The position numbers were made by a program, and so were the translations under genes. From assembly GCA_963555825.3 (NCBI GenBank), contig CAUVXB020000001.1, positions 2,348,805 through 2,412,804 on the forward strand: a stretch of 64,000 nucleotides of DNA. The letters run 5' to 3'. This DNA comes from Alphaproteobacteria bacterium. Its GTDB lineage: Bacteria > Pseudomonadota > Alphaproteobacteria > JAAXGF01. This document shows, piece by piece, positions 43,836 through 62,136 of this stretch (the first letter of the stretch is position 1; each line of letters starts with the position of its first letter). Under the pieces are notes generated by a model. The model did not search any database, was not told where the DNA came from, and worked only from the letters and a program-made list of their open reading frames with translations.

Positions 43836-44645
43836 GCGGTGATCGGGGGTGTGGCGCGCAAGGCGCACTTCTTCGTCTTCGATCTGCCGCACAGCGACGC
43901 CTGCTATGTGCGGGCCTACCCTGCGGCGACGGCCGAGGCGTGGATCGACGGGCATGTGCATGCCTTCGCCTTCTTCGGCGGGGTTCCGCAATCGGTGCTC
44001 TACGACAACGACCGCTGCCTGGTGTCGCGCATTCTGGCGGACGGGACGCGCAGGCGGGCGCGGCTCTTCGGCGGGTTCCTGTCGCATTACCTCGTGCGCG
44101 ATCGTTACGGGCGCCCAGGCAAGGGGAACGACAAGGGCGCGGTGGAGGGTCTGGTGGGCTTTGCCCGGCGCAACTTCATGGTGCCGCTGCCGCGCTTTGC
44201 CAGCTGGGAAGCGTTCAATCTGCGGCTCGAGGAGCAGTGCCGCCGCCGCCAGGGCGATATCCTGCGCGGGCACCGAGAGACCATCGGAGAGCGCCTGGTG
44301 CGGGATCTGGCGGCCATGGCCGCGGCGGCGGCGGCGCCCTTTGAGGCCTGCGCCCAGGCTCCCGGGCAGGTCAGCTCGCAGTCTCTGGTCCGTTACGAGA
44401 CCAACGACTACTCGGTGGCGGTGGGCTATGGCCATCGCGACGTCTGGGTGCGCGGTTACGTCGACCGGGTGGTGATCGGCTGCGGCGGAGAGGTCAATCG
44501 CCCGCCATCCCCGGTCCTATGAGCGTGAGGACACGATCTTCGAGCCGATCCACTATCTGCCCCTGATCGAGCAGAAGATGGGCGCGCTGGATCAGGCGGC
44601 GCCGCTTGCCGGACCTGTCGCCCGCGTTCCAGACCCTGCAGGCGT
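43836..44645 (+). pseudogene. IS21 family istA fragment
   Basis: AFFGGVPQSVLYDN, KGNDKGAVEGLVG, LVRYETNDYSV; frameshifted and truncated at both ends. Confidence 0.85.
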
Positions 44646-44740
44646 CCAGGCCAGATCACCTCACAGCCACTAGGCTTATCAATCAGCATTCCGAAGCTCG
44701 CGATGAATGATCCGGTGACAAATTACGCACAGGCGCATTA

Positions 44741-45915
44741 TACCAGTGAGCGCCTGAATTGACTCTCGGGATATTCATTGATGGCGGATGATGGCGGATT
44801 GTGATTCTATGGTCTCCCACCAGATGTGGGGGATGTCATGGGATCAGCACTCAAGATACGGGATGATTTGACGCCTTTGGAGCTTCGGCGCTGGGCTCGC
44901 GTGGAATCGTACGGTCGAGCGGCGGCGCGGGCCTATGGGATCGCGAATGCTTTGGAGGAGATGCCCCGGGCTGATGCCGCGCGGCTTGCGGGGATGGATC
45001 GCCAAACGCTTCGCGACGCGGTTGTTCGTTACAATGCAAAGGGATTGGAGGGGCTTCACGACCGTCCAAAGGGCTACTCGCCGCGGCGGCTGACGGCAGA
45101 CGAGGAAGCGGCGCTGGCGGCGGTCATCATCGCCGGGCCGGAGCCTGAGCGCGACGGGGTTTGCGCCTGGACCCGGGCCGATCTGTGCCGCTGGCTGGAG
45201 GAGCGCTTCGCCAAGACCTACCACCCCTCGAGCATGACCCGGGTTCTACGGCGGATGGGATTTTCCCGCCAGAAGGCGCGCCCGAGCCACCCGCGAAGGG
45301 ACGCCGAAGCGCAGGAGCGCTTCAAAAAAGGGGGCTTCGCGACATCCTGAAGGCGACCGCCGCGGCGCATCCCGACAAGCGCCTACAGCTGTGGTTTCAG
45401 GATGAAGCGCGCGTCGGCAACAAGGGCCGGGTGTGTCACCGGTGGTGGCGCAGGGGCGAGCGTGCCCCCGGGACGCGTCAAATCGGCTACCAGTGGGCCT
45501 ACATCTTCTCCGCCGTGCGCCCGGACACCGGCGACGACGTCACCCTGGTGATGCCGAGCGTCAACGCCAAGGTCATGGACCTGTTTCTCGCACACTTCGC
45601 CGATACCCTGGACCAGGATGCGCACGCCGTCATGATGTGCGACGGCGCCGGTTGGCACGACGAGCGCGCCCTCACCGTCCCCGACAACGTCACCTTGGCG
45701 CTGTTGCCGCCTTACAGTCCCGAACTCAACCCCGTCGAGCGGGTTTGGCTCTACCTACGCGAACGCTTCCTATCGCTCCGCGTCCTCGACGACACCGAGG
45801 CCATCATCGACGCCTGTTGCCAAGCATGGATCGACCTCATCGCAGAACCGGATCGTATGCGAACCCTCTGCGCCTATCCATGGATCATGAAGGTGATTTC
45901 ATAGGCTCACTGGTA
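44741..45915 (+). mobile_element. IS630 family element (two ORFs, -1 frameshift)
   Basis: Terminal IR TACCAGTGAGC, TTA flanks, AAAAAAG slippery site, FQDEAR/DGAGWH/YSPELNPVE. Confidence 0.92.
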
Positions 45916-46089
45916 TTAGGCCCTCTAGTTGCGTATTTGTGTCCGGGCTGCATGTCAGCTAACGGAAGTTTGTGATGCACCTCAATGCACGCGTCACCAA
46001 TATAGAATAATGTTGTGATTGGCCGGTGTGGGCGATCGCCCGGGCCCCGAGGAGGAATCTGAGGCGGAGGAAATCAGTAAGAGGACCGC

Positions 46090-46773
46090 ATGCAGCAGCC
46101 AGTGCGCTTGTCTTTCCGGCTGTCCGACTTGCGGACAGCGGTCTGCGATTCCCCCAAATTGGTCGCGGCCGTGTTGTTGGCCGCATTGATACCGCTCGCC
46201 GGCTGTGGCACCGCATCGCCGCCGACACGACAGGCGGATATCTGCGAGGTGTTCCGGCAGTACCCCGACTGGTATGACTATGCCCGGAAGTCCGCAAGCC
46301 GCTGGGGAACACCGATCCACGTGCAGATGTCGTTCGTGCGCCACGAATCGAGTTATCGGGGCGACGCCCGGCCGCCGCGCCAATGGCTCTGGTTCATACC
46401 GCTCGGCCGTCCGTCTTCTGCCAAGGGCTATGCGCAGGCACAGGATCCGGTCTGGAACGAATACCAAGCGGAACGGGGACGTCTGTTCCGCAGCCGCGGC
46501 GACATGGAAGATGCCCTGGACTTCATCGGCTGGTACAACCACCGAACCAGACGTCAGCTCGGCATACCCCTCACCGACGCGCAGCGCCTCTACCTCGCCT
46601 ACCACGAAGGGCAGGGCGGATATCGGCGGGGCACCTGGAGGGACAAGCCGAAGGTGCAGCGTGCCGCCCGGCGGGTCGCTGCGACCTCGGATCGTTATAG
46701 AGCGCAGCTTGTGCGCTGTGAATCCAGCTTTCGGTGCGACTCCTGGTATCAAGTCTGGCCGTTCTGCCGCTAA
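46090..46773 (+). CDS. Transglycosylase SLT-like lipoprotein
   Basis: LAGC lipobox, RHESSY, SSAKGYAQA, YLAYHEG.GG. Confidence 0.82.
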   Translation: MQQPVRLSFRLSDLRTAVCDSPKLVAAVLLAALIPLAGCGTASPPTRQADICEVFRQYPDWYDYARKSASRWGTPIHVQMSFVRHESSYRGDARPPRQWLWFIPLGRPSSAKGYAQAQDPVWNEYQAERGRLFRSRGDMEDALDFIGWYNHRTRRQLGIPLTDAQRLYLAYHEGQGGYRRGTWRDKPKVQRAARRVAATSDRYRAQLVRCESSFRCDSWYQVWPFCR

Positions 46774-47147
46774 TCGCCGATCTGCACCCTCGCGATATGC
46801 GGGTGCACTAGCGCGTATGAATCCGCATGCCAAGTGGAGAGTCTTTACGTTGAAGGGAGTCGAAACTACATGGGCGGCGTCATCGCGCGCGAGGACCTCT
46901 CGGCCGGGTTCGGCGGTACCCGCTGATCCCTTCGGTCTCGGCGGTGCGACGCTCGCTGCTTTGCTAGGGCGGGCCCATCGCCCCTTCTTGCACGGCGAAC
47001 CGGACCGCGCTGGCTCCAGCCTGGCGATGCCGCTGTGATGAGCACCAGCGCGATCAGCGTGGTAAAGATCATGAAATAGCCGACAGTCGCAATCATCAAG
47101 GGCAAGGTCGAGGCTCCGGTGAAGACGGGCACGGCGCAGGTTCCTGG

Positions 47148-47333
47148 TGATCCTCCCCCATCGAATTGGTCCATCCTTGGGTTTGGGAATGAGGAGGATC
47201 AACGATGGCAAGGAAGCGTTACAAGCCGGAGGAGATCGTCAGCCTGCTGCGGCAGGCGGAGGTTCTGCACAGCCAGGGCATGTCGATGGCGGATGCGATC
47301 CGGCAGTTGGGGATCAGCGAGGTCACTTACTAT
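47148..47333 (+). pseudogene. IS3 family left end and orfA fragment
   Basis: TGATCCTCCCCC end; MARKRYKPEEIVSLLRQAEV...GISEVTYY. Confidence 0.8.
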
Positions 47334-47336
47334 ATC

Positions 47337-47375
47337 TATGGACGGCTCTCCCGTTGCAAGGGATGTTGATCTGAG
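47337..47375 (-). mobile_element. IS110/IS1111-type right-end remnant
   Basis: Reverse complement CTTGCAACGGGAGAGCCGTCCATA resembles CTTGCCACCGGGAGGCGTCCATA at ~53554-53576. Confidence 0.55.
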
Positions 47376-47465
47376 GTAGGCATCCGCCGAAGGCTGCGGG
47401 GTATTTGGGGCTGAGTTTGGTGGCGGCGCATTTCCGGTGAGGAAGCGCCAGGCGGAGGTCTCGGC

Positions 47466-49067
47466 CTATGCGGCCTGATCGTGCCGCTGGCTGTCTTGCC
47501 CGTTCCACGGGAGGAGTTCGTCGAGCTGGCTCTGCGGCGTCCCGGCGATGCGGTCGAGGATGTCGGCGAGCCAGGCCTGCGGATCGACATTGTTGAGCTT
47601 GGCGGTGCCGATGAGCGTGTACATCGCCGCCGCCCGCACGCCGCCGCGGTCGGAGCCGGCGAACAGCCACGACTTCCTGCCCAAAGCGATACCGCGCAGT
47701 GCCCTTTCGGCGGCGTTGTTCGTAAGGCAGATGCGGCCGTCGTCGAGGAAGCGGGCGAAGAGGTCCCAGCGCCTGAGCATGTAATCCATCGCCTTGGCCA
47801 CGGGGGAATGGCGCGACAGCTTCCTGCGCTCGGCCTGCATCCAGCCCTTGAGATCGGCCAGCACCGGCGCGCTCAGCTCCTGGCGTACGTCGAGGCGCTG
47901 CTCGGCGGCCTTGCCGTTGATCCCGCGCTCGATGTCGAACAGCACGTCGATCCGCTTCACCGCCTCCAGCGCGAGCGGCGAGATCGGCGGCGCGTTCTTG
48001 CCGCGTCCCTTGCTGGCCGCGATGTCGGCGAGCTCGAAGAACTTCCTCCAGCAATGCGACCAGCACGCTGCCTCGGTGACAGGTCCCGGCGATCTTCCGG
48101 CCGCATAGAGGCGGTTGTAGCCGGCGTAGATGTCCGCCTGGAGGATCCCGGTGAAGGTCCGCAGATGCTCGACCGGGTGATCGCCGGACCGGTCCCGCGA
48201 GTAGCGGAATAGTGCCGCCGGCGGGTCAGGACCGCCGAACGGCGCGTCGTCGCGGACGTAGACCCAGGCCCGCGCGGTAGCGGTCTTGCCCTTGGCCAGC
48301 ACCGGCACCGGCGTGTCATCGCCGTGCAGACGCTCCGCCGCCAGCACATGCGCCGCGATCCGCTCGTGCAGCGGCCGCAGCGCCACCGTGCAGGCGCCCA
48401 CCTGGTCGGCCAGGGTCGACAGGCTGAGATCGACACCTTCGCGCGCGTAGCGATCCCGCTGGCGGTTGAGCGGCTGGTGCTGGCCGTACTTCTCGAAGAC
48501 GATCATCGCCAGCAGGTTCGGGCCCGCCCAGCCCCGGGGTGTCGCGTTGAACGGCGCCGGCGGCTGGGAGATCTTCTCGCAATGACGGCAGGTGAACTTC
48601 TCGCGCACCGTCTGGATCACCTTCCAGCGGCGCGGGATGACCTCCAGCGTCTCGGTCACGTCCTCGCCGATCTTCGACAGCTTCTCCGAGCCGCAGCAGG
48701 CGCAGGATGTCGGCCCCGGCACCACCACGCGCTCGCGCGGAAGGTGCGCAGGAAACGGCTTGCGGGCCGGCTTGCGACGCGTGAACCCCTTGACCTGCGT
48801 CGTTCCGGCCGCCGCCTGTTCGGCCGCCAGCTCGTCCTCGGTCGCGCTCGCCTCAAGCTCGTCGAGCTGAAGCTCCAGCTGGTCGAGAAGCCGCTGCTTG
48901 CGCTCCGAGCGCCAGCCGTACATCTCGCGCCTGAGCTTCTCGATCGTCAGCTTCAGGAAGGCGATCTCCGCCGCGGCGCCGGACACCTTCGCCGCGGCGT
49001 TCGCAGCCCGCGCCTCGGCCGCCGCGAGGGCCGTCTTCAGGGCTGAGATGTTGGACCCGCCGGTCAT
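47466..49067 (-). CDS. tnpC: IS66 transposase TnpC
   Basis: LHGDDTPV, LQADIYAGY, TNNAAERALR, TAKLNNVDP. Confidence 0.92.
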   Translation of the reverse strand: MTGGSNISALKTALAAAEARAANAAAKVSGAAAEIAFLKLTIEKLRREMYGWRSERKQRLLDQLELQLDELEASATEDELAAEQAAAGTTQVKGFTRRKPARKPFPAHLPRERVVVPGPTSCACCGSEKLSKIGEDVTETLEVIPRRWKVIQTVREKFTCRHCEKISQPPAPFNATPRGWAGPNLLAMIVFEKYGQHQPLNRQRDRYAREGVDLSLSTLADQVGACTVALRPLHERIAAHVLAAERLHGDDTPVPVLAKGKTATARAWVYVRDDAPFGGPDPPAALFRYSRDRSGDHPVEHLRTFTGILQADIYAGYNRLYAAGRSPGPVTEAACWSHCWRKFFELADIAASKGRGKNAPPISPLALEAVKRIDVLFDIERGINGKAAEQRLDVRQELSAPVLADLKGWMQAERRKLSRHSPVAKAMDYMLRRWDLFARFLDDGRICLTNNAAERALRGIALGRKSWLFAGSDRGGVRAAAMYTLIGTAKLNNVDPQAWLADILDRIAGTPQSQLDELLPWNGQDSQRHDQAA

Positions 49068-49138
49068 CGGCGGGATCGAATCACATCGACCGATTCGGCG
49101 CTACAACATTCCTCCCGCCCGCGTCGTTCCCCCGCCGA

Positions 49139-49486
49139 TCAGCCCGCGCGAGACGGTCGCCAGGTCCGAACCGGGTTCCGCCAATCGATCCCCTCGAGCA
49201 GGTAGCCCAGCTGCGCCGCGCTGATCGACACCGCACCCCCCGACGTCGTCGGCCACTGGAACCGGCCGCGCTCAAGCCGCTTGGCGTAGAGCGAGATCCC
49301 CACCCCGTCATGCCACAGGCATTTTACGAGGTCGCCTCGACGACCGCGGAAGATATACAAATCCCCCGCATGCGGGTCGCGCCCGAGATCCTCCTGGACC
49401 TGAAGCGCCAGGGTGTTCATGCCGCGCCGCATGTCGGTCACCCCGGTCGCCAGCCAGACCCGAACACCGCCCGGAACCGGGATCAT
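49139..49486 (-). CDS. tnpB: IS66 accessory protein TnpB
   Basis: TDMRRG, FRGRRGD..K.LWHDG, KRLERGRF.WP. Confidence 0.92.
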   Translation of the reverse strand: MIPVPGGVRVWLATGVTDMRRGMNTLALQVQEDLGRDPHAGDLYIFRGRRGDLVKCLWHDGVGISLYAKRLERGRFQWPTTSGGAVSISAAQLGYLLEGIDWRNPVRTWRPSRAG

Positions 49487-49880
49487 CGGCGTGCCAGAAC
49501 CGCCAGCACCCGCGCCAGCGCCGAACCGTCCACCTCCCGGTCGACGATCACCCGCGAGCCATCGGCCAGCGCGATCTCCATCCGTCCCGCCGCCGGCGCT
49601 TTCCCCGCGGCAGCACCCAACGGCGGCGGCTCCACAACCACCGGCACCAAGCCGCCGGCCCCGCCAGCCTGCTCGCGAAACCGGCGCCGCCAGTTGAACA
49701 CCAGGTTGGCGTTCACGTCGTTGCGCCGCGCCACAACCGACACAGAAACCCCGGGCTGGTAGCTCTCCGCTACGATCCGGCGCTTCTCGGCATCGCTCCA
49801 GCGACGACGAAGGGCATCGGGGCCTTCCCGCCCGGACCCCGGATTCTCCACTGCTTCCGACATCTGCGATCGTGTCCACT
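49483..49880 (-). CDS. IS66 TnpA HTH protein (start uncertain)
   Basis: RRRWSDAEKRRIVAES...VARRNDVNANLVFNWRR. Confidence 0.8.
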
Positions 49881-49883
49881 TAG

Positions 49884-51128
49884 CCCGCATTCCCCAAGTG
49901 ACCGATCCATCTGATGCGGTTTCCGTCTGATTCCTGTATAAGAATCAGTGGATTAGATCAGACGGAGGGTGGGTCGAATGCGGAACCTGGAGGGTGAGTC
50001 GGATCGGGGGCTTCTGCGGGCGTTTTTCGACCGAAGACTGAAGTTCGAGTTCCACGGTTCGCGGATCACGTCAGACGCTGGTCTGCTCGCCTATCGTGAA
50101 CTGGACGAAGCCCTCGGCCTGACCACGCTGGCCGGTGACGTTATTGCTGACAGCCGGACCGGCAAGAACGGTTGGCACGGCATCATCGGTCTCCTTCGCC
50201 AATCCGTCTATGGTCGTCTCGCCGGGTACGAGGACGTGAACGACGCCGACCGGCTGGGGCGCGATCCTGCGATGCGGTGGATCGTCGGCGGCAGGGCTGT
50301 CGAGCGCGGCGGCGCATCGACCAGCCAGATGGGCCGGTTCGAGACGGAGTTACTCGCCACCAATGACAACCTCGCCGCGCTCGCTGACCTTTTGGGCATC
50401 TGGATCGACCAGGTTAACGAGCGCAAGCCGCCGAAGATTATCGTGCTCGACATGGACAGCTCCGTCAGCCCGACCTACGGTGACCAGGAGGGCACGGCCT
50501 ACAACGGTCACTTCGGCTGCACGTGCTATCACCCGCTGTTCGTGTTCAACCAGTTCGGCGATCTGGAGCGTTGCGCCCTGCGTCCGGGCAACGTGCACAG
50601 CGCCCATGAATGGCGCGATGTGTTGGACCCGGTGGTCGCTCGATACCGGAACAAGACACTCCGGCGTTATTTCCGTGGTGACGCCGCCTTCGCCTCGCCC
50701 GAGATTTATGAGTTTCTGGAAGCGGAAGGCTTCAAGTACGCCATCCGGCTTCCGGCCAACAAGGTGCTGCACGACAGCATCGCGCACCTGCTCAAGCGCC
50801 CCGTCGGTCGGCCGCCGAAGGAAGTTCGTCGGTATTACGCGAACTTCAGCTATCGGGCCGGTAGCTGGACGAAGCCCCGCCGGGTCGTCGCCAAGGTGGA
50901 GTGGCACTCAGGGGAACTGTATCCCCGCGTCGGCTTCATCGTCACCAACCTGAGCCGTCCTGCCGAGCGGGTTGTTGCGTTCTACAATCAGCGCGGCACT
51001 GCCGAGCAATGGATCAAGGAAGGCAAGAACGCCATCAAGTGGACGCGGCTGTCATGCCGTTCGTTACGCAACAATGCCGTCCGGCTCCAGCTGCATGCAC
51101 TCGCCTATAACCTCGGCAACTTCATGCG
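49884..51128 (+). mobile_element. IS1380 family element, 3'-truncated
   Basis: IRL CCCGCATTCCCCA; ITSDAGLL, LDMDSS, FRGDAAF, YNQRGTAEQWIKEGK; breaks off after NLGNFMRT. Confidence 0.9.
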
Positions 51129-51664
51129 TACGGCGAAGCGGGTGTTTCAACTGTATTGGGTCGACATGGAAACGGGCGAGATCGTGGATTTACGGCTGAC
51201 ACGGACGAAGTTCCTCGAACACTTCGCCAACCGCGCGCCGTGCCTTGTCGCGCTGGAGGCGTGCGGCGGTTCGCAGCACTGGGGACGGCGGCTGCGCGAG
51301 CTCGGCCACGAGGTACGGCTGCTGCCAGCGAAGATGGTTCGGCCCTTCGTGGGCGGTAACAAGAACGATGCGCACGACGCACGCGCGATCTGGACGGCGG
51401 TGCAACAACCCGGCATCAAGACGGTTGCGATCAAGACCGAGGAGCAGCAGGCGATCCTGGCGCTGCACCGCATGCGCCAGCAGTTGGTGAAGTTCCGCAC
51501 CGCGCAGATCAACTGCCTGCGAGGCCTTCTGACCGAATATGGCGAGGTCATGCCGAAGGGCCGGGCCGGTATGCGTCGAGGCATGGCCGAGGCCCTCGCT
51601 CGGGTCTCGGAGCGTCTGCCGGCGATGGTGGTGGAGGCCTTGCGGGAGCAGTGGGCACGCGTGA

Positions 51665-52838
51665 TACCGCATCCGGCTGATCAGTTCGGATAGATGGTTT
51701 TGGGCCACCAGTGGAAGTCGATACGCCCCTTGAAGAGTTCGGGATTGGCATCGAGAGTGAGGCAGCGCCGGGCGACGACGGCGTCGAGTTCCTTGATGGT
51801 CTCGAAGTGTCTGTTTGCGACCGGCTCGTCGAGTACGGGCCAGAGACATTCGGCCGGTTGCAGCTGGGGCGTATAGGGCGGCAAGTAGACGAGGTGGAGG
51901 CCTTCCGGCACCGTGAGGTTCGGCGCCGTGTGCCACCCGGCGCCGTCGATCACCAGGATGATGATGCGGCTCTGCCCAGCGCCGGCCTCGCGGGCGAAGA
52001 GGGCGAGCAGCTTCTCGAAGAATGGCTTGGAGACACAATTGGAGATGTACCAAAAGGTCTCTCCGCTGGTCGGCGAGACGAGGGCGGTGACGTAGAGCCA
52101 TTTGAAGCGGTGGTGGCCGAGCGCCACCGGGCGCATCCCGCGCGGCGCCCAGCAGCGCCGGGCCAATGGCTTCAGACCGAGCCGGTGTTCGTCGCTGGCG
52201 AAGACTTCGATCGGCGTGCCGGGGTGGCGCTCGGCTTCTTCCGCGACCAGGCGGTGAAGTTTTTTTTAAACGCCTGGCGTTCTTCCTCGCTCGCCGCCCC
52301 GGGGTTGTTCGGCCTGGGCACCTGCAAACTCCACTCGACTGCCTTCAGCGCCTCCCAGCCCCGTTGCGGCGCCACCGTCTCCAAGCCCAGTTCGCCCGCC
52401 ATCCAAGCCGCCACCTTCGGCCCAGACCACAAGCCGCCGTCCGCCGGCGGCTTTTTCAGGCGCTCTTTCAACACCGCCAGGACTTCCGGCTTCAGGATCG
52501 TCGCCTCGGAGCCGTTCGAGCGTCGACGATCGCCCAGCGACGACGGGCCGAGCTTGTTGTAGCGAGAAAGCAATTGTTCGAGCCAGCGTTGGCCGAAACT
52601 CGTCATCTCCGACACTTCGCGAACCGTATGGCCTTTGGCCAAAAGCCAGATCACCTGGAAGTGCCGCGCCTCCGTCGCCTCCGACGCCGAGCGATACCGT
52701 CCCTCCAACTCAGAAAGCTGCAAATGTTCCTCGACATGCGCCATGTCCCGCCCCTCCGCGAATCATGACTACGGATCCTAACCCTTTCCGATTCCAACGG
52801 GAATCCGTCGCAACCGAATCATTCAGGCGGAGTCGGTA
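51665..52838 (-). mobile_element. IS630 family element (two ORFs, frameshift at A-run)
   Basis: Ends TACCG...CGGTA with TGA duplication; DGAGWH and PYTPQLQPAE. Confidence 0.9.
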
Positions 52839-53299
52839 TGAGCCGCCTGGATGAGGAGATCGGCGAGATCGAGCGACGGCTCAAGCTTTGGCATCGGGAC
52901 AATGTCGCAAGCCGGCGGATTGCGGCGATCCCCGGCGTCGGGGTGCTGACGGCGACCGCCGCGGTGGCCATGATGGGCGATCCCGCCGCATTCCGGTCCG
53001 GCCGGGAGTTTGCCGCCTGGCTCGGTCTGGTGCCGCGCCACAGCGGCACCGGCGGGCGGGTACGCATGCTCGGCATCTCCAAGCGTGGGGACACCTACCT
53101 GCGTACCCTGCTGATCCACGGCGCCCGCTCCGTACTCACCACGAGCAAATCGCCGCCGGAATGGGCCTCATGCCTGGCCGAGCGGCGGCCGGCGAACGTG
53201 GCCGCCGTCGCACTGGCCAACAAGACCGCACGCACGATCTGGGCCTTGCTGGCCCACGACCGAACGTACCGGCCGAACTTCGTCAGCCAGCCCGGTTAG

Positions 53300-53576
53300 G
53301 GAAGACTGGCACGGAGATCACCTACCACCAGGAGGAGGTGTCACGCCAAGAGGTTGCGCAAGGTACGACGAAGTGTGATGGCGAACAGGTCAGACCGCGA
53401 TCCGCCAAGCCTGAACAGGCCCAAGGGCAAGAAGCCCAGTGGGAGAATGAGGCGCGGATCGGCTGATTCCATCAGGGCCAGCAGGCACCAGCCTGCACGA
53501 ACAGGCCGGATATAGAACTGCAACCTGGTTCTCCCGGAGCACCGAATCGGCCCTTGCCACCGGGAGGCGTCCATAT
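53300..53576 (+). ncRNA. Candidate IS1111-type seekRNA/bridge RNA region
   Basis: Long non-coding end downstream of the IS110 transposase, with a GATGGCGAACAGGTCAGACC...CAGGCCGGATATA layout. Confidence 0.55.
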
Positions 53577-53617
53577 AGGGCCTGTGGGCCCACGCGGGTC
53601 AACCATTGCACCGGCGG

Positions 53618-54388
53618 TTAAGCAGGTATTTTTGGGGATTTCCGCCGTTTTTGGCTTTGGTTGAGACGATAGCTCTCGCCGTTCATTTCCAGGATATGGA
53701 CATGGTGGGTGAGGCGGTCCAGCAAAGCCCCGGTCAGGCGTTCCGAGCCGAATATCTCCGTCCACTCATCGAACGGCAAGTTGGAGGTCACCAGGATCGA
53801 GCCCCGCTCGTAGCGCTGGCTGAAGACTTCGAACAGCAGCTCGGCGCCGGTCTTCGAGAGCGGCACGAAGCCGAGTTCGTCGATGATCAGAAGGTGATAC
53901 TTTGCCAGTTGCTTCTGCAGGCGCAACAGGCGTTTTTCATCCCTGGCCTCCATCAGTTCATGAACCAGGGCAGCGGCCGTGAGGAAGCCGACGGAGAGCC
54001 CCTTTTGGCAGGCCGCCAGACCGAGACCGAGGGCGATATGGGTCTTGCCGGTTCCGCTGTTGCCGAGCGCGATGATATTCTCACGACGCTCGACGTATTC
54101 GCATCGCGCCAACTCCAGAACCAGCATCTTGTTGAGCGATGCGATGGCCTTGAAGTCGAAGCTGTCGAGGCTTTTGACGGCGGGGAACCTGGCCTGTCTG
54201 ATCCGCCGCTCGACCATGCGGCGCTCACGGTCGATCAGTTCCAACTCGGTCAGACGGACAAGATACCGCACATGGTCGGCGCCCTCGGTGGCGCATTGGC
54301 GGGCCAGCTTGTCGTATTCGCGCAGGAACGTCGGCAGTTTCAGGGTCTTGAGGTGATGGGCCAGCAACACTTGCGGCGTATCGGTCAT
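53618..54388 (-). CDS. istB: IS21 helper ATPase IstB
   Basis: GNSGTGKTH, IIDELGFVP, TSNLPFDEW, LDRLTHH. Confidence 0.93.
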   Translation of the reverse strand: MTDTPQVLLAHHLKTLKLPTFLREYDKLARQCATEGADHVRYLVRLTELELIDRERRMVERRIRQARFPAVKSLDSFDFKAIASLNKMLVLELARCEYVERRENIIALGNSGTGKTHIALGLGLAACQKGLSVGFLTAAALVHELMEARDEKRLLRLQKQLAKYHLLIIDELGFVPLSKTGAELLFEVFSQRYERGSILVTSNLPFDEWTEIFGSERLTGALLDRLTHHVHILEMNGESYRLNQSQKRRKSPKIPA

Positions 54389-55100
54389 GACGCGCCTCCA
54401 CCCAACAAGCTCATATAACTGGCGGCGGCCGTGGTCGCCACGTTGGCCCGAGGCAGGTAGGGATAGATATCCAGGTCGAGTTTGGGCGGGCGTCGCTCGA
54501 TACGGCACAGCACAAGGTGTTTGACGGCGTCGTAGCCGATCGCACCCAGGCGCAGGGCGTCCTTCACCGCGCCGTGAAGCACCTCGAGATCGAAGGTCTC
54601 CAGAAGCCGAAGGACCTGGACGTATTCCCGCTTGCCGGCCTTGCCCATGCGCGCCTCCAGGCGACGGCGCAGGGTTGGGAAGGCATCAGGCAGTTCCCAT
54701 CCGGCTAGCGGCGCGGCCTGATCCAGGGCACCGATCTTGTGCTCCAGCAAAGGCAGGTAGTGGATCGGATCGAAGACCATATCTTCCCGGTCGTAGGAAC
54801 GGGGGTGTCGGGCAATGATCCCGGCGCCGCAACCGATAACCACCTCGTGGACATAGCCACGGATCCAGACTTCCTGATGGCCGTAGGCGACGGGCACGGA
54901 ATAGTCATTCGTCCGGTAGCGCACCAGGGACAGCGAGTTGACCCGCGTGCCCTGCTTGTCGCACGCGTCGAACGGTGCCGGCAGTGGCCTCTTCAACGCT
55001 TCGCGGTCACGCACAAACCGTTCGCCGATGCTCTCGCGGTGGCCGCGCAGGACGTTGCCTTGTGGACGCTGAGGTTCGAGGCGCTACATCTGGGCGTTCA
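54385..55100 (-). pseudogene. istA: IS21 istA 3' fragment
   Basis: LVRYRTNDYSVP, HYLPLLEHKIGALDQAAPL; N-terminus missing. Confidence 0.85.
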
Positions 55101-55150
55101 GGGCGTTGCCCGAGTCAGTTACGCTTATTTCAGTCCACGATGAGACCATG

Positions 55151-56023
55151 CTACGGCAGGAGATCGCGTAACACATAGGTCCGATGTAGTGAGGCGGCTT
55201 GATAGAACCGCCAAATCGGTGAATCCATAGCTGCGCGGTAATCTTCGCTGCCGTTCAGTTCATCCCACTGCTCATTCCAGGTGTCGCCCTCATACTCAGG
55301 AATCGTCTCACCGGCGGCGCCGAAAATTTCGCCCGACTGAGCCGCAGTCCGCCAAACCGCAATGCGCTCATCCTTATTGCCTTGCACTCTCAGGACGTCG
55401 AGCACGTGGGGTGCAATGACCTCGAATTCACGAGCGTCACCGCTACCGTAAGCGTCTCGCTGCATCCCGACAAAACGCCTGAACATGTCGTGCAGCGCGC
55501 GGCAACCTGCCAAGAAGGTCACGGGATTGTTGCGGGTGCTACGAAGGCCCGCAATCGCGTCTGACCGTTCATATTCGAAGCTCCATACGAGATAGGGTCG
55601 ATCGGGAAATGTGGCTACGGACCCGTGTCCAAGAGCGCCGGATACAGTTTCGGCGAACCAGCTCTTGATGTTGGTAAGCAGACCGCCGTGTGCGCCGTGA
55701 TTTTCAAAGAAGCGATTTGCCTTCTCCGTGACATAGTTGCGCATGTCGGGCGACAGTGCCGTGATCGTCTCGTCAAGCCCCTCGACCTCTTCGTTAAGGC
55801 GAAAGCTGGAGTTGTGGACTTTGTTGCCTCGCGAGCTGACACCCGAAAAGCCGTAATGAGAGAATGTATCGGCGTAGACATGTGCCGCTATACCCAGCAA
55901 GTGCAGTGCGAAAGCCCGATCCGAGAATGTTAGGTGGTAATCCCGCATTTCCTGGACGGTCGGGCTGTCCATGCGGCATTTGAGCCGCTCGGTGTAGGTT
56001 TCTCCGATATTGCCGGGAATGAA
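55151..56023 (-). pseudogene. DUF6765-like gene, C-terminal part
   Basis: FIPGN...LGIAAHVYADTFSHYGFSG; joins in frame with 59535-59776. Confidence 0.75.
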
Positions 56024-56051
56024 CCCGGATCGCGGCCCCGCCGCGCCGAAC

Positions 56052-56085
56052 AAAAAAAGGGCCCGAGGCCGAAGCCCCAGGCCCC
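56052..56085 (-). terminator. Rho-independent terminator
   Basis: Minus strand GGGGCCTGGGGC-TTCG-GCCTCGGGCCC followed by T7. Confidence 0.75.
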
Positions 56086-56413
56086 ATCCTTCGCGAGGTG
56101 CGTGCGCCGTCGCGATGGATCAGGCGGTTGTGCGCCGTCTAATTCGGAATCGCTCCAGGCTGCGAATGCAGCCCGCCGGCCGTCCGGCGCGCCCGCGCAG
56201 GCGCGGACCTTCAGGTCCGCTGCCGCGAGCGAAACAGCCGAGAGCGGTTCTCATCAAATGAGAACCGCTCTTGCCGTGTCGAAACGATCGACCCCGGGCC
56301 CAGCGCTTGAAGAGCTCGACGAAGACAAGCAGCGGATAGACCAGCGGGTTCCTGAACTACCTGAGATAGATGGCGACGGGACCGGCGCGCCCTTGCGGCG
56401 GGGTGCGGCGGCC

Positions 56414-57814
56414 CTAGACCAGCACGACCTTGCCCGGGTTCATGATGTCGTCGGGGTCCAGCGCGCGCTTGACCTGGCGCATGACCTCGACGGCCTCGCC
56501 GTGCTCGGCCTCCAGGTGCTTGATCTTGCCGTAGCCGATGCCGTGCTCGCCGGTGCAGGTGCCGCCCATGGCGAGCGCGCGGGCGATCATGCGGTCGTTG
56601 ACCCCGTGCGCGCGGCCCATCTCCTCCTCGTCCCCCGGATCGATGACGAAGGTCAGGTGGAAGTTGCCGTCGCCCACGTGGCCGACGATGGGCGCCAGTA
56701 GCTCCTGGGCGTCCACGTCGCGGCGGGTCTCCAGCAAGCATTCGGCCAGGCGCGAGATCGGCACGCAGACGTCGGTCGGCCAGCCCTTGGCCCCGGGGCG
56801 CATGGCGAGCGCGGCGTAGTAGGCGTCGTGGCGCGCCTGCCAGAGCTTGCTGCGGTCCTCCTGGCGGGTCGCCCAGCGGAAGTCGCTGCCGCCGCATTCG
56901 GCGGCGATCCCGCCGACGGTCTCGGCCTGCTCCTCGACACCGTGAGTGGAGCCGTGGAACTCGTAGAAGAGCGTCGGCTGGACCGGATAGTCGAGCCCGG
57001 AATAGCGGTTGATGGCGCCCATCTGGACCTCGTCCAGCAGCTCGATGCGGGCGACGGGGATGCCCATCTGGATGGTCAGGATCACCGAGTTGACCGCGCC
57101 CTCCAGGGTCGGGAACGAGCAGACCGCCGCCGAGATGGCCTCGGGAATGCCGAAGAGGCGGAGCTGCACCTCGGTGATGACCCCCAGCGTGCCCTCGGAG
57201 CCGACCAGCAGGCGGGTCAGGTCGTAGCCCGCCGCCGACTTGCGCGCCCGCCCGCCGATCCTGACGATCCGCCCGTCGGCCAGGACCGCCGTCATCCCCA
57301 GCACCACCTCGCGCATGGTGCCGTAGCGCACCGCGTTGGTGCCCGAGGCCCGGGTCGCGGTCATGCCGCCCAGCGAGGCGTCGGCGCCGGGGTCGATGGG
57401 AAAGAAGAGCCCCGTGTCGCGCAGGTATTCGTTGAGCTGCTTGCGGGTGACGCCGGCCTGGACCCGGCAGTCGAGGTCGTCGGCGTTGACCTCCAGCACC
57501 TCGTTCATCCGCGAGAGGTCGATGCAGACGCCGCCGCGCCGCGCCGCCACGTGGCCCTCCAGCGAGGTCCCGGTCCCATAGGGAATGACCGGGCAGCGGT
57601 AACGGGCGCAGACCGAAACCACGGCCGCCACCTCCTCGGTGCTCAGCACGAAGGCCACCGCGTCCGGCGCCTCGACCGGGTGGTAGGACTCGTCGTGGCC
57701 GTGCCGCTCGCGCTCCGCCGCCGAGGTCGAGAGGCGCTCGCCCAGGATCGCCTCCAGCTCGGGGAGCATGAGGTCGTTGCGACGCTGGGCCGCCCCGTGG
57801 GCGCTGCCCTCCAT
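56414..57814 (-). CDS. FAD-linked oxidase, D-lactate dehydrogenase (cytochrome)/GlcD family
   Basis: PYGTGTSLEGH, PIDPGADASLGGM, GSEGTLG, HVGDGNFH, GEHGIG..K, NPGK. Confidence 0.92.
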   Translation of the reverse strand: MEGSAHGAAQRRNDLMLPELEAILGERLSTSAAERERHGHDESYHPVEAPDAVAFVLSTEEVAAVVSVCARYRCPVIPYGTGTSLEGHVAARRGGVCIDLSRMNEVLEVNADDLDCRVQAGVTRKQLNEYLRDTGLFFPIDPGADASLGGMTATRASGTNAVRYGTMREVVLGMTAVLADGRIVRIGGRARKSAAGYDLTRLLVGSEGTLGVITEVQLRLFGIPEAISAAVCSFPTLEGAVNSVILTIQMGIPVARIELLDEVQMGAINRYSGLDYPVQPTLFYEFHGSTHGVEEQAETVGGIAAECGGSDFRWATRQEDRSKLWQARHDAYYAALAMRPGAKGWPTDVCVPISRLAECLLETRRDVDAQELLAPIVGHVGDGNFHLTFVIDPGDEEEMGRAHGVNDRMIARALAMGGTCTGEHGIGYGKIKHLEAEHGEAVEVMRQVKRALDPDDIMNPGKVVLV

Positions 57815-57857
57815 GAAAGCACCTTCCGCTGTCGGTCCCGGATCGACGCCCCACTAT

Positions 57858-59534
57858 CCGGGATTCCCCAGATGGCTCCTCCCAATCGCCGACAATGGTA
57901 GCACAATGGGCATCCGACCGCGAATCCGGCCGTGAGCTGTCACGATAGGCTGTGGTCCGCTCTTGATCGGGCTGATTTGGCGATGAGAAGCCCGGCCCCG
58001 TGACCATTTCGCACTGTGAGGGCGCACGTCGACCTGCGCGGCACACACCTGTCCTGTCGGGCGACCTGGAGGCACCTGGATGGGCCGCCGTCATGGCGGC
58101 AAAGGAGCCGGCCGCAGCCGGTCAATCAGGCGCAGAATCTCAGCGAACAGAGCTCTGGAGATAGCGACTTCCGCGAGCTGAAAGGTGACATAACGGCCAT
58201 GTCGCACGACCTTCGCGCCGATCTTGATGAGCTTGTTGCCCAGGGTGGTGAGCGACCAGTGTTCCACAGCCTCGGGCAGCGCCAGGGTGCGCAGGAAGTT
58301 GCCGAGATTATAGGCGAGCGCATGGAGCTGGAGCCGAACCTCGTTGTTGCGGAAACTGTGGCAAGATAGGCGTGTCCAGTTGATGGCGCTTTTGCCTTCC
58401 TTGATCCACTGCTCGGCTGTGCCCCGACCTTGATAGAACTTCGTCACGCGCTCAGGCGAACGGGACAGGTTGGTCACGACGAAACCGACACGGGGAACCA
58501 GTTCGCCGGGATGCCATTCCACCTTGGCCACCACGCGCCGCTTCCTGTCCCAGCTTCCAGCCTGATAGCTGAAGCTGGCGTAGTAGCGTCGCACATGATT
58601 TGGTGGCCGCCCAACCGGATGGGACAGCAAATGCGAGATACTCTCTTGCAAAATCGGGTTGGTCGGCAGGCGGATGGTGTAGGCGTAGCCTTCGGCTTCC
58701 AGGAACTCATAGATCTCAGGCTTGGCAAAGGCGGCGTCGCCCCGGAAGTAACGACGCATCTTCCTGTTTCTATAGCGGGCCATGACGGGTTCGAGAACTT
58801 CGCGCCAACCATCGGCAGAGTGGACGTTGCCAGGACGCAGGGCACAACGCTCCAGGTCACCGAACTGGTTGAAGCAAAAGAGCGGGTGGTAGCAGGTGCA
58901 GCCGAAATGCCCATTGTAGGCCGAGCCCTCCTGGTCGCCGTGGGTCGGGCTCTCGGATGAGTCCATGTCGAGGACAATCATCTTCGGCGTCTTGCAATCA
59001 TGAACCCGGTCGATCCAAATCCCCGAGAGATTGATCAAGGCCGCCAGGTTCTCATTCGTGGCAAGCCACTCCGTCTCGAAGCGCCCCATCTGGCTGGTCG
59101 AGGCGGCACGACGATCAAGGCCCTTGCGGTCCACGATGGCTCGCATCGCCGGGTCGCGCGACAGTCGCTCGGCATCGTTCACGTCCTCGTATCCGGCCAA
59201 GCGCCCAAACACCGATTGGCGCAACAGGCCCGTCAGCAGGTGGCGCGTGTTCTTGCCTCGACGCAGGTCCGACAACGTCGCCCCACCGAGGTCGGTCAGG
59301 CCGAGAACATCGTCCAGCTCGCGGTAGGCCAGGAGCCCAGCGTCCGACGTGATCCTGCTGCCATGGAATTCCAGCTTCAGGCGGCGGTCAAAATCGACCC
59401 GAAGGCACCCCGGTTTCAATTCACCCATCGGATACGCCATGGTCTGATCGCTACGACTATTATAAGATACTGAATCTTATATATGAATCGGCTCAAAAGG
59501 TCACGAAAATGGTGATGTAAATGGGGAATCCGGG
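57858..59534 (-). mobile_element. IS1380 family insertion sequence (complete)
   Basis: IRR CCGGGATTCCCCA at 57858 versus IRL CCCGGATTCCCCA. Confidence 0.9.
58091..59440 (-). CDS. IS1380 family transposase
   Basis: ITSDAGLL, LDMDSS, FRGDAAF, RGTAEQWIKEGK, LIKIGAKVVRHGR. Confidence 0.93.
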   Translation of the reverse strand: MAYPMGELKPGCLRVDFDRRLKLEFHGSRITSDAGLLAYRELDDVLGLTDLGGATLSDLRRGKNTRHLLTGLLRQSVFGRLAGYEDVNDAERLSRDPAMRAIVDRKGLDRRAASTSQMGRFETEWLATNENLAALINLSGIWIDRVHDCKTPKMIVLDMDSSESPTHGDQEGSAYNGHFGCTCYHPLFCFNQFGDLERCALRPGNVHSADGWREVLEPVMARYRNRKMRRYFRGDAAFAKPEIYEFLEAEGYAYTIRLPTNPILQESISHLLSHPVGRPPNHVRRYYASFSYQAGSWDRKRRVVAKVEWHPGELVPRVGFVVTNLSRSPERVTKFYQGRGTAEQWIKEGKSAINWTRLSCHSFRNNEVRLQLHALAYNLGNFLRTLALPEAVEHWSLTTLGNKLIKIGAKVVRHGRYVTFQLAEVAISRALFAEILRLIDRLRPAPLPP

Positions 59535-59776
59535 ATGAAATGGAATGGCACCCAGACCCGGCGCTGGTCATGATCGTCGAGATTGGAGCGGTCAACAAGG
59601 TGATGGGCAGTGGCCTCCTGGTCAATCCGCGAGCCATCGCGGAACCCCACATGACTTTGGGCCGTGTTGTCGTCAACGAATTGAGCGGAAGTGGCAATGA
59701 TCCGGGCCGCGTCGGAATTGAGGCCGCCGGCTCTGGCCATGGCGTAGGTGCCGTAATAGTGCATGTCTAGCTGCAT
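59535..59776 (-). pseudogene. DUF6765-like gene, N-terminal part
   Basis: MQLDMHYYGTYAMARAGG...SAQFVDD...VWVPFHFI. Confidence 0.75.
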
Positions 59777-59822
59777 CGCCTATCTCTTTCGTCATATTGT
59801 GTTCAAGTGTACCGCCCACCAC

Positions 59823-61015
59823 TAGTGTCCTGATCGATAAATTGATATGATTATGTCTCTATTTGTTTTTAGGAGGCGCGATTGATGGCGAGAGTGGCGG
59901 TGACGATCTCTTTGAGCGATGACGAGCGCGCCGAATTGGAGGCGCTGTCTCGTCGTCGCAAGACGTCGCAGGGGCTTGCGCGGCGGGCTCGGATCGTCTT
60001 GGCGGCGGCGGAAGGGTTGGAGAACAAGGAGATCGCCGTTCGTCTCGAGGCGAGCGCGGACACCGTGGGCAAGTGGCGTCGCCGCTATGCGGCGGAGGGC
60101 CTCGACGGTCTGTACGACGAACCCCGCCCCGGCGCGCCGCGTCAAATCGGCGATGACGCCATCGCGGAAGCGGTCCGGCTGACGCTGGAAGAGACGCCGC
60201 CGGACGCGACCCATTGGAGCCTTCGCTCGATGGCGCGGGCGAGCGGCCACGCGCCCTCGACCATTCATCGCATCTGGCGGGCCTTCGGCTTGCAGCCGCA
60301 TCGCTCGGAGACCTTCAAGCTGTCGAGCGATCCCTTCTTCGTGGAGAAGGTCCGCGACATCGTCGGTCTGTATTTGGCGCCGCCGGATCGTGCCCTGGTT
60401 CTCTGTGTCGACGAAAAGAGCCAGATCCAGGCCCTGGACCGTTCCCAGCCCCTCTTGCCGATGCGCCCCGGGCAGGCGGAGCGGCGCAGCCACGACTACA
60501 AGCGCCACGGCACGACCTCTCTCTTCGCGGCCCTCGACATCGCCACGGGAGAGATCATCGGCAAATGTTTCCCGCGCCATCGGGCCCGAGAGTTCCGCAA
60601 ATTCCTCGACCTCGTCGAGGCGAACGTCCCTGCTGATCTCGACATCCACATCGTCATGGACAACTACGGGACCCACAAGACCAAGGCGATCCGCGACTGG
60701 TTCGCCAAACGGCCGCGCTGGCAGGCCCATTTCACACCCACCAGCGCCTCCTGGCTGAACCAGGTCGAGCGCTGGTTCGGGCTGCTGACCGACAAGCAGA
60801 TCAGGCGCGGCGTCCATCGCTCCACCAAGGAGTTGGAGCGCACCATCCTCGACTACATCGACACGACAAACCAGAACCCCAAACCCTTCAAATGGACCAA
60901 ATCCGCCGATGACATCCTCGGCGCCATCCAGCGCTTCTGCCTCCGAACAATCGAAATCGCTGAACAGCAGGCGAAAATCATGCGAACTTCGGTCGCCGAG
61001 GTAATCGGGACACTA
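59823..61015 (+). mobile_element. IS630 family element (single ORF from 59885)
   Basis: IRs TAGTGTCCTGAT/TAGTGTCCCGAT at CTAG; [30 protein letters not shown]. Confidence 0.92.
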
Positions 61016-61244
61016 GACACGGTTCCGTTTCTCAATTTCGAGCTCGGAGCGGTGGATGCGTTTCGGCGTCAGCCTGAGTGAGTATAGTGCCCGACAGACC
61101 CTCGCTCAACCGCGCGTAGCTTAGAAATAAATTGGTACCTATGAATTACTTGAATATTACCAGCGGCGTAGATTTCTGACTCGCGGGAAGGTGGGGGTCC
61201 CTTTTGGGTTTGATGTGATTCAAGGCTGGCGAAGGAGGTTCGCC

Positions 61245-61707
61245 ATGTCAGCATGCATTGCCCTTCGGGATGATTATGACAGCCTTGCGCTTCGGGACTT
61301 GGCTAGGCGCAGTCGCGATCTTCGCCAGGTTCGCCGCGGCTTTTGGCCTTGGCGGCGGTAAACGACGGCATGCGCCGCACGGAGCCGGCGAAGCTCGGCG
61401 GTATGGATCGCCAGACACTGAGAGATTGGGCGCATCACTTCAACGACGAAGGGCCAGATGCCCTGAAACACTATTCCGGTGCTGGCTGTCCCCGGCTCTT
61501 GACGCAAGAACAGATGAGCGAACTCTCTGCGATCGTGGAAATCGGCCCCGATCCAGAGGTAGACGGCATGGTTCGCTGGCAATGTATCGACCTGAAGCGG
61601 GTCATCGAAGAACGCTTTGGTTTGAATTTCAGCGAGCGGACACTCTCCGATCTGCTGGCGACGCTGTCCATCTCGCACATCAGAGGGTGTCTGACGTCAG
61701 CGCTTAA
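61245..61707 (+). pseudogene. IS630 family HTH orfA remnant
   Basis: GGMDRQTLRDW..FN.EGP, GPDPEVDGMVRW; frameshifted, with no DDE part. Confidence 0.75.
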
Positions 61708-62136
61708 GGGACAGATTGCGGGTATTGACTAGCGAAGAATTTCTGGCTCATCGTTACATGTGTCTCCTGAAATCTGCGTTAAGTGTATCAACCATGGCTT
61801 TCCGGACCGGAACTGGATACGTCACCGGTATACACCCAACCGCCATTCTTCTCCTTCTTTCAGCACTCCGCGACAACTTGCGCGGTCGCGCAACCCTTGA
61901 GCTCATTGCTCTTCGAGGCATTGTCAAGTTAATTGATTGTAGTTTGTTCTCGCCATTTCTCCATGAGACTAAGTCATAGAAATTGCGTAAAGCAGCAAGC
62001 GCTAGAACAGCAAACCCCAATTTACCGCGATTTGGGAGTGAATCCGGTTAACTTGACAAATCCCTTCAACCTGCAGGAACCCATCATCTTCGTAGCGCCG
62101 CTTTTGATCTTCGGTGAGAAGCATTGTCTTGATCTC

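Follow-up and report, generated by a model that had tools for sequence, protein, structure and literature searches.

The DNA analysed here, called the window throughout, is a stretch of 64,000 nt from an Alphaproteobacteria bacterium (GCA_963555825.3, contig CAUVXB020000001.1, positions 2,348,805 to 2,412,804 of the forward strand). It belongs to a sponge- and marine-associated alphaproteobacterium whose own genome (G000) comprises 6.04 Mb in contigs C1 and C2; the last window base is the end of contig C1, and all coordinates given below are window positions. Towards this end, a gene encoding a DUF6765 protein is split by a 3511-bp unit (56024-59534), which direct reading of the sequence shows to be enclosed by exact copies of the pentamer ATGAA. 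The unit has two parts: an IS1380-family insertion sequence (IS) of 1677 bp (57858-59534) and 1834 bp of cargo DNA (57857-56024) with a complete gene for an FAD-linked oxidase. The initial annotation of this DNA had taken the unit for an IS1380 element that moved together with adjacent DNA by means of its left end and a surrogate right end, leaving a 5-bp duplication, and the evidence set out below supports this core reading. The features of the locus are as follows.

56020-55154, then TAG at 55151-55153, minus strand: C-terminal piece of the DUF6765 gene (PF20551, profile positions 82-325, E 1.6e-53)
56019-56023, no strand: target-site duplication copy 1, ATGAA, read directly, abutting the surrogate end
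56024-56035, plus strand: surrogate right end of the unit, CCCGGATCGCGG, identical to the IS left end over its first 7 bases
56024-56413, minus strand: non-coding tail downstream of the oxidase gene, 390 bp, with no repeat in the own genome
56085-56058, minus strand: terminator-like hairpin of 12 pairs (9 G-C) with a TTTTTTT run after it, 25 bases in from the surrogate end
56414-57814, minus strand: FAD-linked oxidase gene of the LDHD type, complete, 466 amino acids (PF01565, E 3e-39; PF02913, E 7.6e-65)
57837-57845, plus strand: second inverted-repeat-like motif, CCCGGATCG, located 12 bases beyond the right end of the IS, within the 43 bp that precede the start codon of the cargo gene
57858-57870, plus strand: the IS's own right inverted repeat, CCGGGATTCCCCA from 57858, a 12/13 match to the left repeat
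57858-59534, minus strand: IS1380-family insertion sequence, 1677 bp, with ends fixed by related copies
58091-59440, minus strand: transposase gene, intact, 449 amino acids (PF13701, E 1.4e-137, profile positions 3-434 of 435)
59459-59487, minus strand: promoter-like site TTCATA-17-TATAAT upstream of the transposase gene, a consensus match only
59522-59534, minus strand: left inverted repeat, reading CCCGGATTCCCCA from 59534 inward and lying 94 nt ahead of the transposase start
59535-59539, no strand: target-site duplication copy 2, ATGAA, read directly
59776-59537, minus strand: N-terminal piece of the DUF6765 gene (PF20551, profile positions 1-80, E 4.4e-29)

Ends of the insertion sequence and of the unit

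IS1380-family elements measure about 1.65-1.7 kb and carry short terminal inverted repeats starting with CC. The window IS conforms to this pattern in its length of 1677 bp and in its repeats (CCCGGATTCCCCA against CCGGGATTCCCCA, 12/13), and the 5-bp ATGAA copies at the unit ends agree with the 4-5-bp target duplications of the family. Its transposase, whose gene is separated from the right repeat by 233 non-coding bases, scored 458.9 bits against PF13701 (cut-off 34.7) and 389.6 bits against the NCBIfam IS1380 model NF033539 (cut-off 180), and shares 64% identity with transposases that carry an IS1247-family annotation. In the own genome, this IS type occurs once (one 100% match, the next best at 78%). 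A tblastn search returned 80 pieces of IS1380-family transposases there, 46 of them at least 420 amino acids long; the 6.04 Mb hold ~46 full-length and ~30 fragmentary matches. Both ends could be located in 41 related own-genome copies, mostly 1641-1642 bp long; the left repeat lies 94 nt before the start codon in the located copies as well, and in 20 of the 41 the element itself is bordered by an exact, AT-rich 5-bp duplication. The main type in this genome measures 1642 bp, and its insertion sites are AT-rich 5-mers (TTAAG, CTAAG and ATAAA, for example). An IS1247-family copy from pSHV3 has the same left-end offset and end layout as the window IS.

These copies define where the element stops. 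Two loci of the own genome (L002 and L003) and three of relatives (L201, L202 and L204) share CCGGGATT(C/T)CCCA... from exactly base 57858 onward, while the flanks outside this shared right end are unrelated and AT-rich in all five; ~45 further bases are nearly unchanged in L003, L201, L202 and L204, with L002 being more divergent. Part or most of the stretch is also contained in 20 public sequencing runs from 9 studies, of which four (X15, X2, X6 and X9) were compared. In X6, from marine sediment, loose contig ends fall at 57858 in 44 contigs and at 57856 in 7, with discordant flanks. The left-end boundary was confirmed by L002, L206 and L207. The IS's own right end thus lies where the initial annotation had placed it, within the unit. 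As a side observation, the right-end piece of L003 (G000:C1:561372-565922, locus positions 4464-4518) is a 55-bp stretch 98% identical to the window IS that sits 1.4 kb from the body of a 76%-identical copy, which was apparently split by another insertion.

The position of this inner end bears on whether the oxidase gene is a regular passenger of the element, whose true right end would then be 56024. Such a passenger-carrying IS would account for the oxidase gene sharing the minus-strand orientation of the transposase gene and lying inside the duplicated borders. However, the related copies stop at 57858 with a conserved right repeat and without an oxidase gene, the marine-sediment contigs end at the same base with many different flanks, and the pSHV3 copy has the same layout and likewise lacks the oxidase gene. 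The G+C content of the cargo gene (0.68-0.74) also departs from that of most of the IS (~0.59-0.64; target gene 0.55-0.59, genome 0.65), and further independent insertions of the 3511-bp unit with the 56024 end were not found in the own genome, relatives, GTDB or metagenome contigs. We consider this explanation very improbable.

As for the duplication, the direct reading bore out the annotated 3511-bp unit with its exact ATGAA copies, which flank the left end of the IS and the distal end of the cargo, and not the IS's own right end. The IS itself shows no duplication at its own ends, the flanks being TTCAT and ATAGT, and it is present as a single copy at one end of the unit with the cargo beyond its right (3') end. 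At two given positions, five bases would repeat exactly by chance in ~1 of 1000 cases. This arrangement was also weighed against a succession of two events, in which the DUF6765 gene first received the cargo in some other way and then the IS, inserted at the cargo edge. Nothing specific speaks for such a history, save that the region is dense with insertion sequences. A plain IS insertion would have duplicated 5 bp at the element's own ends, but the duplicate of the left-end flank sits at the far end of the cargo; no mechanism is at hand for the precise insertion of 1834 bp between the IS tip and its duplication, and the proteins of the target gene described below are found either uninterrupted or with an identical junction. 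Two separate events therefore appear still less probable than a regular passenger.

The annotation had further placed the end of the unit about 1.8 kb beyond the IS's own right end, at a surrogate end. Indeed, 1834 bp on, the unit reads CCCGGATCGC on the plus strand from 56024, and its terminal heptamer CCCGGAT equals the left repeat in 7/7 bases (8/12 overall), with no likeness further in. The distal end of the unit thus partially resembles the inverted repeats. CCCGGAT occurs in the own genome at a frequency of 9.0e-5 per strand-position. Both this heptamer and the ATGAA repeat fall where the target gene is interrupted, a boundary defined independently; since CCCGGAT lies exactly at a boundary set by the target gene and the duplication, its presence at this frequency is not due to chance.

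The same heptamer would also be expected if the unit were a decayed composite transposon, with the oxidase gene once between two IS1380-type copies and the copy on the 56024 side deleted save for its outermost bases, and the abundance of IS1380-family copies and fragments in the own genome (the 80 pieces mentioned above, 46 of at least 420 amino acids) would have offered material for it. Past base 7, though, the sequence resembles neither inverted repeat, whereas true ends share at least 12/13, and the ~45 nt common to the right ends of relatives are missing at the 56024 side. The own-genome comparison revealed no second IS copy at this far end. The tail 56024-56413 contains no own-genome repeat and resembles no own-genome IS copy, which argues against a decayed second IS. 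A deletion stopping exactly 7 bases from an IS tip would, moreover, be ad hoc. A composite origin is accordingly very unlikely in our estimation.

Other sequences resembling the inverted repeats occur in the cargo. The motif reported in the initial annotation at 57837 is present (CCCGGATCG, 57837-57845), and a third CCCGGATCG lies at 56634-56642, within the coding region. The stretch at 57837-57854 has 14/18 bases in common with 56024-56041 in the same orientation (CCCGGATCG.. ..CCCC.C), and the slightly longer intervals 57834-57854 and 56021-56041 form a repeat (D3) of 76%. Beside the ends of the IS copies, inverted-repeat-like 7-mers gave 3 matches in 42 copies against ~1 expected, with no clear enrichment. 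Among the own-genome copies without an exact duplication, the unit under study alone scored 7/7. A candidate for a further transposition unit at C1:1215015 was rejected, as the copy's own flanks agree in 4/5 bases (GTAAA versus ATAAA); C1:2221184 is a copy with its true right end displaced by ~1.4 kb.

Intact and interrupted alleles of the DUF6765 gene

Excision of the unit together with one ATGAA restores the reading frame of the target gene, as had been proposed at the outset. The N-terminal piece stops at ...CAT TTC AT (59535) and the C-terminal piece resumes with T CCC GGC AAT from 56018, so that by codon count the rejoined gene reads F-H-F-I-P-G-N; the two pieces cover positions 1-80 and 82-325 of the PF20551 profile, and intact alleles confirm the continuity. 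A protein search with the C-terminal piece recovered P0002, P0003 and P0129 (376 amino acids), which are 99-100% identical to it and read ...RRVWVPFHFIPGNIGETY..., with P0129 falling in the same cluster as the intact allele matches. The C-terminal piece is 100% identical to the intact P0002, and the N-terminal piece equals the first 80 residues of that protein. Near-identical proteins elsewhere are therefore uninterrupted across the insertion site (…VWVPFHFIPGNIGE…), which indicates that an empty site exists, known at the protein level only. In line with the annotation's expectation that homologs of the target run continuously through FHFIPGN, FHFIPGNIG is unbroken in six proteins, namely the three above and the shorter records P0126, P0128 and P0130.

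Other proteins carry the insertion. P0001, P0122, P0123, P0124 and P0125 begin with residues translated from the cargo end (...GAAGPRSGF) and continue into IPGNIGE; they therefore have the same junction as the window. P0127 corresponds to the N-terminal piece continuing into the IS left end. With intact and junction-bearing alleles both present, we conclude that the insertion is real and polymorphic among very close relatives.

We also asked of the public runs whether the join itself could be an assembly artefact, i.e., a chimera formed at an IS repeat, given that the IS family is highly repeated and that the window stops at a contig end; a misassembly at 56024 or 59534 had been named as a concern in the initial annotation. 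Contigs of X15 (organism B) span 55400-56200 with 0 differences and 59382-59847 with 1 difference, and contigs of X2, labelled as a sponge metagenome, span 55400-56125 and 59487-59707, so that both outer junctions are bridged in two runs of two studies. Against a chimera also stand the single-copy status of the window IS type in its genome, the junction-derived start of five database proteins on several contigs, and the fact that a misjoin would not yield an exact duplication together with in-frame rejoining. An artefact is thus the most remote of the explanations considered.

Several other observations concern the DUF6765 gene. The TAG at 55151-55153 replaces a lysine of P0001, P0002 and others (…DLLPKHGLIVD); 7 remaining codons and the native TGA follow it in frame, which makes it a nonsense change in a gene already disrupted, and P0124, from another contig, shares this short form. 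P0126 and P0128, intact at FHFIPGN, break off elsewhere (…RIAVPAYP and …GALGHGGMSRYLLKF, respectively), which suggests other insertions or breaks in the DUF6765 gene of related strains.

A foreign cargo gene

The captured DNA comprises, as annotated, an intact FAD oxidase gene (56414-57814) and a terminator-like hairpin (56085-56058). Residues 17-463 of the predicted protein align to 19-470 of the mitochondrial D-lactate dehydrogenase structure 8jdc (E 1.5e-158), and it has the FAD_binding_4 and FAD-oxidase_C domains of the LDHD type together with this end-to-end likeness to a solved LDHD. An identity as GlcD was rejected, with 334.9 bits against TIGR00387 (cut-off 567.9) and 209.6 against NF008408 (cut-off 897). 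On the strength of this alignment, the two domains and the scores below the GlcD cut-offs, "D-lactate-dehydrogenase-like" appears to be a fair name for the gene.

The cargo is single-copy, no second copy having been found in the own genome, and its protein is 67% identical to the host paralog L022. Its closest relatives are L126, on a metagenome contig (84% amino acid identity), and metagenome-assembled genomes of Kiloniellaceae and Rhodospirillales (77-79%). A comparison of cargo and host paralog had been suggested initially. We computed a quick maximum-likelihood tree of 42 rows, drawn from 165 candidates and consisting of the top matches, host-family orthologs and some more distant rows. 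There, L022 clusters with five host-family orthologs (Shimodaira-Hasegawa-like approximate likelihood ratio test, SH-aLRT, 99), whereas the cargo pairs with L126 (SH-aLRT 99) and is nested in a Kiloniellales/Rhodovibrionaceae-like group (92). These identities, the separate grouping and the G+C contents given above indicate that the cargo gene is foreign rather than copied from the host paralog.

Neither a donor nor a second site of insertion emerged from the searches. Among 60 relatives no donor was found, the best cargo match being 79% at the nucleotide level; 0 of the 15 matching PLSDB plasmid records span at least 80% of the unit; GTDB species genomes gave no donor (best match 83% amino acid identity, partial), and neither did metagenome contigs (best 84%), in which an exact 25-nt tail pattern had 0 matches. 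The tail yielded weak matches only (best E 1e-4) against the loci L030-L120 of relatives in tblastx and blastn, and a single kind of hit in Rfam, a miRNA match far below threshold. Alignment with four relatives revealed no conserved native upstream DNA of the cargo gene. In X6 and X9 the target gene has no coverage; these runs contain many IS relatives and short cargo-like contigs, e.g., one at 56814-57202 with 8 differences. The claim that the mechanism "is spreading" the gene consequently goes beyond the data, which amount to a single insertion at a single locus of one lineage, with no second locus and no donor.

The initial suggestion that the cargo is possibly expressed from the IS likewise found no positive support, although transcriptional read-through from the IS would be possible. 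In the interval from the end of the transposase gene to the cargo start codon (minus strand, 58090-57815) neither a terminator-like site nor a sigma-70-like match was found, although a consensus scan could miss an alphaproteobacterial promoter; the gap between the IS right end and the cargo start codon amounts to 43 bp.

Within the tail, the bin 56155-56305 has a summed contig depth 10-100x that of its neighbors in three of the four runs (not in X2), with no repeat there in the own genome, and a C>A difference at 56238 occurs in 5-9 contigs of X6 and X9. The depth peak may reflect short chance matches of abundant contigs around a palindrome at 56242-56270.

Probable one-ended transposition and its precedents

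A duplication around the outer ends only, a distal inverted-repeat-like site, a true right end inside the unit and a single IS copy are together the signature of one-ended transposition known from ISEcp1 and ISPme1/IS1247a. We therefore interpret the unit, with a probability of roughly 0.9, as a transposition unit, or "transposable module", that arose when an IS1380-family element from the IS1247-like subgroup underwent one-ended transposition; that any of the four rival explanations discussed above is correct, even when they are taken jointly, seems improbable. In the proposed course of events, the IS would have been located in the donor 43 bp upstream of the LDHD-type FAD oxidase gene. The transposase would then have paired, in one event, the true left end (59534) with CCCGGAT at 56024, 1834 bp beyond the element's own right end (57858), and a 5-bp staggered cut at the AT-rich ATGAA in the DUF6765 gene would have allowed IS and cargo to insert as one piece. 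Misrecognition of the end is itself proposed by analogy with ISEcp1 and ISPme1, and the acting transposase may have been that of the window IS or have come from one of ~40 related copies. As neither donor nor second site was found, we infer the earlier arrangement, with the IS beside the gene in its native context. The cargo, if expressed, may be transcribed by read-through or from an outward IS promoter.

Several points weigh against this interpretation. The surrogate end matches the inverted repeats in its 7 terminal bases only (8/12) and is devoid of the ~45-nt subterminal stretch conserved among relatives, and two other CCCGGATCG sites (57837 and 56634) were not used as ends. X15 or X2 may be the source sample of the window genome and so possibly are not independent of it; these runs therefore count against misassembly, not as an independent occurrence of the unit. 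The X15 contig over the inner junction 57857/57858 has 27 bases on the IS side, under the 31-base rule, and no joint skipping the unit is present among the 15 of 34 joints listed. Finally, neither a donor locus nor a second insertion site was found, the best relatives of the cargo being 83-84% identical in amino acids.

The closest precedents are the ISPme1/IS1247a transposable modules (TMos) of Paracoccus, in which, according to the passages of PMC3281130 and PMC9330008 that describe them, one IS copy mobilises 3'-side DNA of variable length via a downstream inverted-repeat-like sequence. The window unit resembles them in the IS1380 family membership of its IS, in the location of its cargo 3' of the IS, and in the 64% identity of its transposase to the IS1247 family with the same left-end offset. 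The Paracoccus modules, however, were reportedly obtained in trap-plasmid experiments, whereas the window event is deduced from one natural insertion. ISPme1 is also credited with a measured strong outward promoter, of which the consensus scan showed no match between transposase and cargo in the window unit, and the window IS is a separate member. Similarly, ISEcp1 units carrying blaCTX-M, blaCMY-2 and other genes are described, in the part of PMC6061673 devoted to them, as using the left end and a poorly matching surrogate right end, with 5-bp AT-rich duplications around the whole unit. There, too, the IS lies shortly upstream of a co-oriented cargo, at 116 bp for blaCMY-2 (same part of PMC6061673) compared with 43 bp here. 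The window differs in its cargo, a metabolic gene, and in its host, an environmental alphaproteobacterium associated with sponges and marine habitats. Its transposase is presumably only distantly related to that of ISEcp1. IS1247 of Xanthobacter autotrophicus GJ10, an IS1380-family element, is said to have activated and mobilised the adjacent haloacetate dehalogenase gene dhlB, reportedly under laboratory selection for a phenotype.

A further case is the IS1380 (IS1247-family) element of pSHV3 in Sphingobium herbicidovorans MH, which, as stated in the pertinent section of PMC5737581, inserted into the chromosome together with yfcG, gstB and part of rutE. It has the same layout of ends as the window IS and differs in its cargo and in being present in multiple copies in its genome, versus a single copy here. 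In the sequence of this element (L208), the IS1247-family flanks at positions 357 and 2027 read ...gattaa / ttctac..., with no duplication at its own ends, in agreement with the published account of neighboring genes having moved with it. The literature thus already contains cases of IS1380-family elements that captured ordinary genomic or catabolic genes in Alphaproteobacteria, as the cited portions of PMC3281130, PMC9330008 and PMC5737581 document. The remark in the initial annotation that such mobilisation is "mostly documented for resistance genes" accordingly understates the literature, at least as represented by these portions, with their modules of ordinary genomic DNA in Paracoccus and Sphingobium.

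The surroundings of the unit, at 44000-62000 of the window, are dense with insertion sequences:

45161-45901 and 59882-61081: IS630-type genes, with a fragment at 61343-61729
47469-49879: IS66 genes
49969-51690: IS1380-type frame running into an IS110-type domain
53618-55014: IS21 istB and part of istA

Together, these data indicate that gene capture of the kind best known from clinical beta-lactamase genes and ISEcp1 also extends to ordinary metabolic genes in Alphaproteobacteria from the environment. As the mechanism is already known from Paracoccus, Xanthobacter and Sphingobium, the window unit adds an example and not a principle, albeit one for which the in-silico evidence is unusually complete, comprising the inner true end, the surrogate end, the duplication, empty-site alleles and a foreign cargo. 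With an intact IS, an intact cargo and both possible right ends preserved, the locus is a well-defined test case in which mobility and IS-driven expression could be measured directly. A more far-reaching view, which we hold to be rather unlikely, is that the insertion represents a recent adaptive and still polymorphic gain of a second, foreign D-lactate/D-2-hydroxyacid dehydrogenase, transcribed from the IS by read-through or from an outward promoter 43 bp upstream. Were it correct, the intact and interrupted alleles of this locus, 99-100% identical, would form a natural before/after pair on which the effect could be measured, and IS1380-type modules would be a working route of metabolic gene gain in IS-rich symbiont genomes.

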